NCBI GenBank assembly: GCA_050874585.1
Contig: JBNMKZ010000006.1
Span: forward strand, 134 to 64,133
DNA from: Verrucomicrobiota bacterium
GTDB taxonomy: Bacteria > Verrucomicrobiota > Kiritimatiellia > RFP12 > UBA1067
DNA: 64,000 nt
Direction of reading: 5' to 3'
Made by a program: the position numbers and the translations under genes. Below the pieces are notes generated by a model, which saw only the letters and a program-made list of their open reading frames with translations, did not search any database and had not been told where the DNA came from. Below, in pieces: positions 13,535 through 13,842 of this stretch (the stretch's first letter is position 1; each line of letters opens with the position of its first letter).

Positions 13535-13842
13535 TTCCGATGCCCGTCGGAAAAATTTCTAATGGGCATTAGAAGGTACTCCAATGCCCGAAGGAAAGTA
13601 CTCCAATGCCCATTAGACGGTTCTCGCGCCCCATCATCCCGAAGATCTCCCGCGCCTACTCCTCTATTATAGAAGGGCAGAAGTGGTTGATTTGTCCTCA
13701 TTCCGTTCGTCGGACGAGGGTAAGAGCTTGACGGCGGATGCGCATCGCGGCAGGATGTGGTGCGCACGACGGAAGCCTGGGATGCGCACGAGTCGGTTGC
13801 GCCCTGCGCATCTTCCGGGAGAGGGGTGTACCCTCTGTGGGC
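13535..13842. repeat. array of 22-bp phased palindromic units (two well-phased blocks)
   Basis: Cores TGCCCG 13541, TGGGCA 13563, TGCCCG 13585 and TGCCCA 13607. Then TGCGCA at 13739, 13761, 13783 and 13805, and TGTACC at 13827. The two blocks are in the same register (198 = 9 x 22). The stretch between them is degenerate. Confidence 0.8.

Follow-up and report, generated by a model that had tools for sequence, protein, structure and literature searches.

The stretch analysed here (the window) is 64,000 nucleotides of contig JBNMKZ010000006.1 from a Verrucomicrobiota bacterium. It has a composition of 62% G+C and carries all its credible genes on the + strand. Our subject is the spacer upstream of the aspS gene, which holds an array of hexamer cores set 22 bp apart (array A), together with the other arrays of this kind in the window. 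By their AspS proteins, the relatives of the organism are uncultured gut and rumen bacteria of the Kiritimatiellae/Lentisphaerae type (Planctomycetes-Verrucomicrobia-Chlamydiae, PVC). Array A begins 26 bp past the stop codon of an open reading frame (ORF 13207-13509) and consists of two blocks. Block 1 (A1) is a row of near-palindromic units (H type), and block 2 (A2) is a row of four TGCGCA hexamers with unrelated sequence between them (T type), followed by a small hairpin (Table 1). Every element listed in a first-pass annotation of this spacer, the arms of the block 1 units included, was found in its place. Comparisons among strains used ten same-species contigs with identical AspS (DNA identity about 95.6%) and, for array B, a more distant strain, L224, in which the neighbouring glycosyltransferase is 93% identical. 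The best genome match is a mislabelled metagenome-assembled genome (MAG) with an AspS identity of 99% but a DNA identity of only 87%.

A hexamer at a 22-bp step at four loci

Arrays with a 22-bp step were found at four loci of the window, A, B, C and D. A T-[G/C]4-A hexamer and the step itself are all that they (A1, A2, B, C and D) have in common. The hexamer is most often the palindrome TGCGCA, and all 8 cores of the T blocks (A2 and B1) have this sequence, while the flanks vary freely and may be palindromic arms, direct repeats or unrelated spacers. In T blocks the spacers are no more similar to one another than random sequence (identity 0.25, which is also the value for block 2 itself). Array B (41574-41799) starts 86 bp past the stop codon of a glycosyltransferase gene (40304-41488) and runs through 11 cores in a single unbroken register, from its T part (B1) into its H part (B2), in the diverged strain L224 as well as in the window. 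The first-pass annotation had taken the locus at 41574 for the same phenomenon as that upstream of aspS, and this proved correct. The arrays begin about 26-125 bp past stop codons (26-86 bp for H units), and one of them enters a gene: the ORF at 56634-57398, a pyruvate formate-lyase activase, takes its last 22 or so codons and its stop from array C (57322-57398), ending in GRTYPLAAEFRCPSDGILMPVGKISDGHQKTL. The activase ends elsewhere in strains with other numbers of array C units (232 or 254 amino acids), and in a sister species it ends in GRTYPFASTPIVR. No palindromic unit was found in the window outside the 22-bp arrays; the three other matches at 3 mismatches correspond to the chance expectation of 2.7.

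The spacing was compared with chance in three ways. TGCGCA-N16-TGCGCA-N16-TGCGCA has 4 matches in the window, against 0.00 in 100 dinucleotide shuffles. When steps of 15-30 bp were scanned, chains of at least three TGCGCA, TGSSCA, TGSSCR/YGSSCA or T[GC]4A cores were observed at step 22 only. Similarly, a motif-free test for any 6-mer occurring three times at a fixed step returned 6 regions at step 22 and 0-1 at each of the other steps (14-33). We conclude that a chance origin of the 22-bp phasing is excluded, which bears out the first-pass annotation on its central point. Its estimate that TGCGCA should occur once per few kb was too low, the actual number being 54 in 64 kb, or about one per 1.2 kb. 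It had also described the two blocks of array A as lying in one register over a degenerate middle. The 198-bp (9 x 22) separation of the blocks is real in the window, with odds of 1 in 22 for such a coincidence, and among the strains measured the offset is likewise 0 in L084, L088 and L089. It is +2 in L081, L082 and L087 and -1 in L086, and in the alignment L083, L085 and L090 carry the indels of L081 between the blocks. Small indels break the register in about 7 of 11 strains, and since the offset differs among strains, the shared register is a coincidence of the window strain.

Table 1. Array elements and adjoining features, in coordinates of the window
Feature	Position	Strand	Description
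Array A, whole	13535-13840		block 1, block 2 and hairpin with TGTACC
Array A, block 1 (A1), H type	13535-13618	.	four 18-bp near-palindromic units TTCYRA-TGSSCR-TYRGAA at 22-bp step, beginning at 13535, 13557, 13579, 13601; cores TGCCCG 13541, TGGGCA 13563, TGCCCG 13585, TGCCCA 13607
Array A, block 2 (A2), T type	13739-13810	.	four TGCGCA (13739, 13761, 13783, 13805) with unrelated 16-bp spacers
Hairpin AGAGGG-GTGTA-CCCTCT	13820-13836	.	holds in-register TGTACC at 13827, a weak fifth block 2 position
Solitary TGCGCA	13872-13877	.	67 bp past fourth block 2 core; register off by one base
Extended -10 box TGGTATAAT of aspS	13949-13957	+	context, outside the array; 1/38 segregating sites
aspS	13984-15789		Pfam tRNA_anti-codon, tRNA-synt_2, GAD (identical strain copies)
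Intrinsic terminator	22392-22430		GGAATGTGG...CCACATTCC then TTTTGG; between exonuclease-domain gene and array D
Array D, direct-repeat type	22477-22548	.	TCCGCA, TGCGCA, TCCGCA, TCCGCA; 22-bp step; units ttccTSCGCAtcaacg; locus 22477-22556
Array B, T part (B1)	41574-41645	.	four TGCGCA, 22-bp step
Array B, H part (B2)	41656-41799	.	seven cores in the register of B1: TGCCCA 41662, TGCCCA 41684, TGCCCA 41706, TGCGCA 41728, TGGGCA 41750, TGCCCA 41772, TGCCGA 41794; nested palindrome
Array C, H type	57318-57448	.	five units and one degenerate (TCCCCA at 57443)

Variation among strains and folding of the blocks

The arrays gain and lose sequence by whole units. Block 1 has 4 or 5 units among the strains, the difference being an exact 22-bp indel, and one unit is replaced wholesale; changes in its arms are paired (TTCTAA..TTAGAA versus TTCTGA..TCAGAA). 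The count is 5 or 3 units in array C, through a 44-bp indel, and any number from 0 to 3 units of the ttccTCCGCAtca type in array D, just past which gene order breaks. Short-read unitigs (Logan) end inside array B. No indel was found to change the step within a block in any strain. Array C and block 1 occur in the same two allelic forms, which are distributed differently between the two loci from strain to strain, and window positions 57310-57434 (array C) are 95% identical to block 1 of other strains over a cassette of about 125 bp. These observations indicate that loci A and C exchange sequence. The cassette is palindromic throughout, and no terminal inverted repeat apart from its units could be defined. 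It is absent from the sister-species sites, where the neighbouring genes differ too, so that neither an exact empty site nor a target-site duplication could be made out.

Segregating sites in the aspS spacer were counted over nine haplotypes. They number 4/72 in block 2 and 58/258 in the adjoining spacer DNA (p = 6e-4), which makes block 2 four-fold less polymorphic than its flanks; the counts are 1/38 from the -10 box to the start codon and 16/84 in block 1. We conclude that block 2 is selectively conserved within the species, a result that speaks in part for the interpretation of the first-pass annotation. A coding cause of this conservation was considered and rejected, because the ORFs across block 2 (for example 13738-13944) run on into the 22%-polymorphic flank. 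For array B, the comparison of B1 between the window and L224 showed 0/24 changed core positions versus 17/48 changed spacer positions (p = 3.5e-4), with the four TGCGCA and the register intact. One L224 spacer begins as window spacer 2 (its 5' half) and ends as window spacer 3 (its 3' half), which corresponds to a 22-bp deletion at a shared CGGG, and L224 has one B1 unit that is absent from the window; every unit, old or new, has TGCGCA at the same step.

Folding was measured against shuffles that left the cores where they were, with ordinary shuffles as a second control. Folding of the H blocks A1, B2 and C was much stronger than that of the core-fixed shuffles (z -3.7 to -6.7; z -3.7/-5.2 for block 1), and with ordinary shuffles array C reached z -8.8 (a long hairpin of -72.7 kcal/mol) and B2 z -8.3. 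The long nested hairpins of B2 and C arise from pairing between CCC-core and GGG-core units. In contrast to the H blocks, A2 showed no excess over core-fixed shuffles (z -0.9/-0.4), and B1 gave z -0.9/-1.3 in L224 and a moderate z -2.8 on the + strand of the window. With random spacers and little or no excess of folding, the T blocks are neither young duplicates nor hairpins. An asymmetry between RNA strands was considered, since raw energies favour the + strand, and was rejected, because the shuffles do likewise and the z-scores have no consistent bias. The lack of a strand bias fits duplex DNA better than one RNA strand.

Relatives, promoters and metagenomic arrays

The sample of relatives comprised 365 kb around aspS from 24 close relatives with AspS identities of 84-99%. 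No chain of T[GC]4A-class cores was found in these 365 kb. Chains of any 6-mer at the 22-bp step numbered two there versus six in the 64-kb window, a density about 17 times higher in the window. One of the two, in the sister species (L001 21459-21535), has 3.5 copies of a different palindromic core, TTCTCCATATATGGCCACGGCG, and the other belongs to the 11-bp iteron set of a small replicon-like module. A blast and pattern search of 222 loci with the cassette and the unit recovered copies in same-species strains only, and a protein database search for further genomic copies with the cassette-encoded peptide gave no match. The arrays are a dispersed family, species-specific and unstable unit by unit. 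In the sister species, aspS is preceded by a 150-bp spacer and a gene resembling chromate transporters. The genes that precede the aspS spacer in the window (2863-12343; a phage-tail-collar-domain protein of 353 amino acids and a Laminin_G_3 protein of 2796 amino acids) are absent there, which places array A at a rearrangement boundary. The first-pass annotation had named a lack of arrays in the orthologous regions of relatives as telling against its interpretation; as far as the loci allow, these regions indeed lack them, the synteny upstream of aspS being different.

Three side observations were made in the contigs of relatives. The TTCTCCATATATGGCCACGGCG array of L001 lies about 95 bp past a transporter gene, and the contig ends inside it; the MAG is labelled Faecalibacterium sp. 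CAG:74, and the contig is Kiritimatiellae-like. In L009 (2200-2900) several iteron sets surround a small gene, namely GGGGCACTTTT in 6 copies, a repeat of 42 bp and TTGTACGGGTG repeats, and the whole looks like a plasmid- or phage-type replication module. After the activase gene, where the window has acyl carrier protein genes, the sister species (L265 3214-3504) has a 96-amino-acid Lys/Ala-rich ORF resembling histone H1 or chlamydial Hc1.

A tie between the arrays and TGGTATAAT promoters had been implied by the first-pass annotation. The tie is weak. For it, arrays A, C and D (three of the four) have a TGGTATAAT box 57-163 bp downstream. Against it, 6 of the 9 TGGTATAAT boxes have no array, and array B has no box downstream, the next gene start being about 600 bp off. 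The distances from the last core centre to the box (A 141.5, C 59.5 and D 165.5 bp) leave no common remainder modulo 10.5 or 11, and thus no common helical phase. Of 20 close relatives, 13 have a TGnTAnAAT box 34-57 bp before aspS, and a 22-bp chain upstream of the gene was seen in none. Co-location of arrays and promoters is expected in any case, because long spacers collect both promoters and repeats. A promoter and terminator scan of 13000-14300 returned nothing useful; the method requires a -35 box, which is absent from these extended -10 promoters. All 9 boxes of the window lie on the + strand and none on the - strand, and three unrelated genes, trmB and tyrS among them, are preceded by copies of a roughly 40-bp promoter cassette, GCGCAAGCCCMCRAGCARGCGGTTTTTGGTATAAT (52-96, 22675-22719 and 35185-35229).

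Arrays beyond the species were sought in a metagenome scan for four TGSSCA at a 22-bp step, which gave at least 120 loci. Most of the matches listed were ordinary 22-bp tandem repeats. A subset with variable spacers, the TTTCnnTGCGCAnnGAAA arrays, has units TTTCnn-TGCGCA-nnGAAA with the core variants TGCGGA, TCCGCA and TGGGCA, on contigs of 35-58% G+C that carry genes for SecDF, HU-HIG and VapE/PriCT-2/DUF3874; from this gene content we infer that the contigs are Bacteroidota-like. As the scan selected for cores, only positions next to the ascertained chain were tested, and these matched T[GC]4A in 9/168 cases in register versus 6/2856 out of register (27 times, p = 1.5e-8). The Bacteroidota-like arrays lie upstream of metK (beyond a SAM-II riboswitch), metG, glyS and rfbA, and some lie between convergent genes. 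At three loci a 22-bp TGCGCA/TGGGCA array was found within 200 bp of an HU-HIG (PF18291) histone-like gene (L205 3071-3768, L210 721-1375 and L097 1766-2335), and no further HU-HIG genes were found in roughly 2.5 Mb of fetched loci. In viral contigs, four TGCGCA at steps of 20, 21, 22, 23 and 24 bp gave 1, 13, 11, 2 and 12 matches, respectively, with step 22 standing out among the non-multiples of 3. The viral matches at step 22 were rejected as arrays of the same kind, being plain tandem or 11-bp iteron-like repeats.

Several features adjoin the arrays in the window. Lying downstream of a canonical intrinsic terminator, array D is probably not transcribed from upstream; the terminator is absent from strains L081 and L086. 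Array D is followed by an 11-bp direct array of about 4 copies of AAGGSTCAAC (22576-22614). In L084 and L089 an inverted copy of the AAGGSTCAAC array stands about 110 bp further on, and the insert, bordered by TCCGCATCA (L084 18590-18800), looks like a small insertion of the kind of MITEs (miniature inverted-repeat transposable elements). The sequence (G)CGGCGGA adjoins the left edge of several arrays or cores (13526, 13732, 41786, 41808 and 57318), for example as ACGGCGGA-TGCGCA and GCGGCGGA-TGCCGA. GCGGCGGA was rejected as a separate edge signal, since the window has 58 copies of it and those at A1 and C are homologous to each other. Elsewhere in the window, two genes are shikimate-pathway fusions, one of chorismate synthase and dehydroquinate synthase (30997-32856) and one of shikimate kinase, EPSP synthase and the N-terminal domain of shikimate dehydrogenase (32860-34962).

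Proposed docking arrays and rival explanations

Comparison with known systems showed that the arrays combine traits of two, which are the nearest known things: clusters of repetitive extragenic palindromic (REP) sequences or bacterial interspersed mosaic elements (BIME), and tandem two-turn operator arrays. A REP unit is a stem-loop of 20-40 bp with a stem of 5-13 bp; REPs are abundant as single copies and as dimers, head-head or tail-tail, whose spacers vary, and a REPIN-RAYT system includes one Y1 transposase (RAYT) gene per genome, mostly with the repeats on either side. REPs lie mostly downstream of coding regions, sometimes within genes, and carry a conserved unpaired GTAG or CGTC tag (PMC3733652). 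Like the arrays, REPs, BIMEs and REPINs (REP doublets forming hairpins) are short extragenic imperfect palindromes past genes that occasionally reach into ORF ends; their opposite units fold into a long hairpin, and their abundance is lineage-specific and strain-variable (PMC3733652, PMC3116915). The arrays differ from REPs in lacking the tag and solitary units, in a strict 22-bp register where REP spacing is 1-100 bp, and in that the T blocks and array D are non-palindromic and have the hexamer and the step only. Palindromic MITEs (ERIC/IRU, Neisseria Correia) are dispersed near-perfect long palindromes in intergenic transcribed regions. The cassette of A1 and C resembles MITEs in its length of roughly 125 bp, its position between co-directional genes, its capacity to extend or replace a 3' gene end and its presence or absence among relatives, whereas its internal 22-bp tandem array and changing copy number set it apart.

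Tandem two-turn operators (lambda, NikR, GlpR and hybrid two-component systems, HTCS) are like the arrays in having a 6-bp core with a 16-bp spacer, 4-11 sites in register and a core dyad; in the T blocks, conservation is limited to core and spacing. The ori and operator sites of phage lambda are tandem, dyad-symmetric and about two turns apart, the tandem GlpR operators are dyad-symmetric protein sites two helical turns apart, and the Escherichia coli NikR operator has the form 6 bp-N16-6 bp (GTATGA-N16-TCATAC). The HTCS motifs of Bacteroides are direct repeats with an average spacing of 21 bp (PMC3878776). Known two-turn operators, however, occupy a single locus at one promoter or origin and have a cognate protein, whereas the arrays are dispersed and unstable, number several in 64 kb and stand clear of -35/-10 elements. 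Plasmid and phage iterons share the tandem arrangement and the 22-bp period but repeat the whole 17-22 bp unit beside a rep gene and an AT-rich region. CRISPR arrays (repeats of 23-55 bp, spacers of 21-72 bp) were rejected, as the conserved part is 6 bp here, the spacers are 16 bp and there are no cas genes. Rfam 15 at gathering scores gave no match in the whole window, and a scan of 13400-14050 at E up to 10 had only chance-level matches (E above 3). Similarly, an Rfam scan of 15 metagenome loci revealed no family for the arrays, and no transfer RNA (tRNA) or transfer-messenger RNA (tmRNA) genes were found. No such arrays were described in the literature covered, which excluded subscription journals, on the motif, on 22-bp palindromic repeats in Bacteroides or on repeats of Kiritimatiellae.

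The reading that we favour, at a probability of roughly 0.42, is that the arrays are a species-specific extragenic family whose cores serve as phased docking sites of a two-fold symmetric DNA-binding protein. Each hexamer would be the dyad centre of one docking site, and successive dimers, bound cooperatively at intervals of two helical turns, would line one face of the duplex and cover 90-240 bp of spacer DNA. Block 2, like the T blocks in general, would be an old array in which only the features required by the protein survive. The H blocks (block 1, array C and the right part of B) would be young units, recently duplicated and converted, and their self-complementarity may have come about through direct and inverted duplication and homogenisation. 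What characterises phased tandem operators, a short dyad core at a spacing of about two turns with unconstrained spacers, is present as TGCGCA-N16 four times over at two loci. In favour of docking sites stand the exclusive 22-bp step, the hexamer class and step as sole shared features, the unrelated and mostly unfolded T-block spacers beside invariant TGCGCA, the turnover of B1 units with intact cores, the constraint on block 2, folding without strand bias, the terminator in front of array D, the metagenome arrays of like step and core class, and the established geometry of two-turn operators. The likely effect is architectural or insulating, in that bound protein would mark off the end of one gene from the promoter that follows. 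The arrays may also modulate the downstream promoter; that they act as a dedicated switch for the aspS promoter is less likely.

A number of observations weigh against docking sites. The spacers of block 2 are conserved like its cores (3/48 and 1/24 segregating sites), so that more than the hexamers matters there, and the H blocks are more polymorphic than their flanks (35/111 in array C). Cores do mutate: TGCGTA was found in L084 and L089, and TGCTCA and TGACCA in the H part of L224. The 22-bp step exceeds two turns of relaxed B-DNA by 1 bp. No candidate binding protein was found, the window genes near the arrays being housekeeping genes only. In the sister species, the counterparts of the genes before B and C are followed by no array, the downstream genes being different there too; the arrays are thus dispensable. 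The sample is four loci in one 64-kb window. Finally, the arms of H units differ from unit to unit yet remain self-complementary (TTCCGA/TCGGAA, TTCTAA/TTAGAA, ACTTAC/GTAAGT), a pattern typical of hairpin-forming repeats or of concerted evolution and better explained by a REP/REPIN-like hairpin mechanism or by hairpin-templated correction.

That pattern leads to a different account, which we consider doubtful. The arrays would be selfish palindromes of the REP/BIME/REPIN kind, spread or maintained as stem-loops in single-stranded DNA or RNA by a hairpin-recognising enzyme (for example a Y1 transposase of the REP-associated tyrosine transposase, RAYT, type), with the T blocks as decayed relics; effects on the host would be 3'-end mRNA hairpins, partial termination or RNase III sites. 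Such elements would account for the 18-bp imperfect palindromes of the H units and the long hairpins formed by inverted groups of units (z -6 to -9), for the 125-bp cassette at two loci with swapped allelic forms, and for shifts in copy number by whole units with paired arm changes. The restriction to one species, the excess in density over the 365 kb of relatives and the breaking of assemblies at arrays fit as well, and so do the positions past stop codons, with one array entering an ORF end as REPs do (PMC3733652). However, GTAG flanks no unit and CGTC occurs only in the paired 3' arm (TGCCCGTCGGAA), leaving no unpaired tag. There are no solitary copies and no variable dimer spacings, only strict 22-bp arrays. 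Folding is without strand bias, and block 2, B1 and array D keep core and step with no stem beyond the hexamer. Block 2, being conserved within the species, is not a decaying relic. No transposase domain was found among the window genes, a weak point since 64 kb is a small part of the genome. It is for the missing tag and solitary units, the strict register and the conserved non-palindromic T and D blocks that docking sites are ranked above REP-like palindromes.

It is unlikely that the arrays activate or repress TGGTATAAT promoters from upstream and here set the strength of the aspS promoter, the reading implied by the first-pass annotation. The association of three of the four arrays with a box, with about 9 boxes among roughly 45 spacers, is nominally above chance (about p = 0.03), block 2 is conserved like the -10 region, and the Bacteroidota-like arrays stand before metK, metG, glyS and rfbA. 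Yet most boxes are bare, array B is boxless, strain indels alter a distance to the box that has no common value or phase to begin with, relatives with the aspS box lack the array, and some metagenome arrays lie between convergent genes. A promoter function is possible for the conserved block 2 but does not describe the family as a whole. Still less probable is a neutral minisatellite, in which slippage or template switching duplicates 22 bp at a palindromic hexamer and cores persist as microhomology. It would explain the whole-unit gains and losses, the chimeric L224 spacer with its deletion between CGGG microhomologies and the absence of arrays in the sister species, and template switching in quasi-palindromes typically leaves multi-base replacements in clusters. 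It does not explain why T-block spacers are randomised while all 8 of the 8 units have perfect cores and no strain has an indel that alters the step, why block 2 is less polymorphic than its flanks, or why five blocks of unrelated sequence in 64 kb share step and core class. Least credible of all is a role as iterons of an origin of replication or as the multi-site termini of a transposon or some integrated element. Plasmid and phage iterons classically have a 22-bp period, as do the end sites of Tn7 and Mu, and the viral rows of four TGCGCA, mostly iteron-like tandem repeats, are more frequent at step 22 than at steps 20 and 23 (11 matches vs 1 and 2). The four loci, however, lie in housekeeping chromosome, and no rep gene, transposase, integrase, AT-rich unwinding region or DnaA boxes were found nearby.

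Docking sites might extend beyond the species, although we think this improbable: rows of T-[G/C]4-A (typically TGCGCA, frequently between TTC and GAA) at a 22-bp step would then be docking arrays of an unrecognised architectural protein that PVC bacteria have in common with Bacteroidota of gut and rumen. Among the latter it may be one of the HU-HIG proteins, and the palindromic arrays would be newborn sites. If the cores are docking sites, the arrays would represent a new way for an uncultured gut lineage to organise or insulate the DNA between its transcription units, and the defined 6-N16-6 site would be a handle for fishing out the protein. If they are REP-like, extragenic palindromes would be extended to the Kiritimatiellae in a strictly phased, untagged form. 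On either reading, the arrays break short-read assemblies, mark points of rearrangement between strains and add repeat-encoded tails to proteins, and so affect both the quality of MAGs and their annotation.

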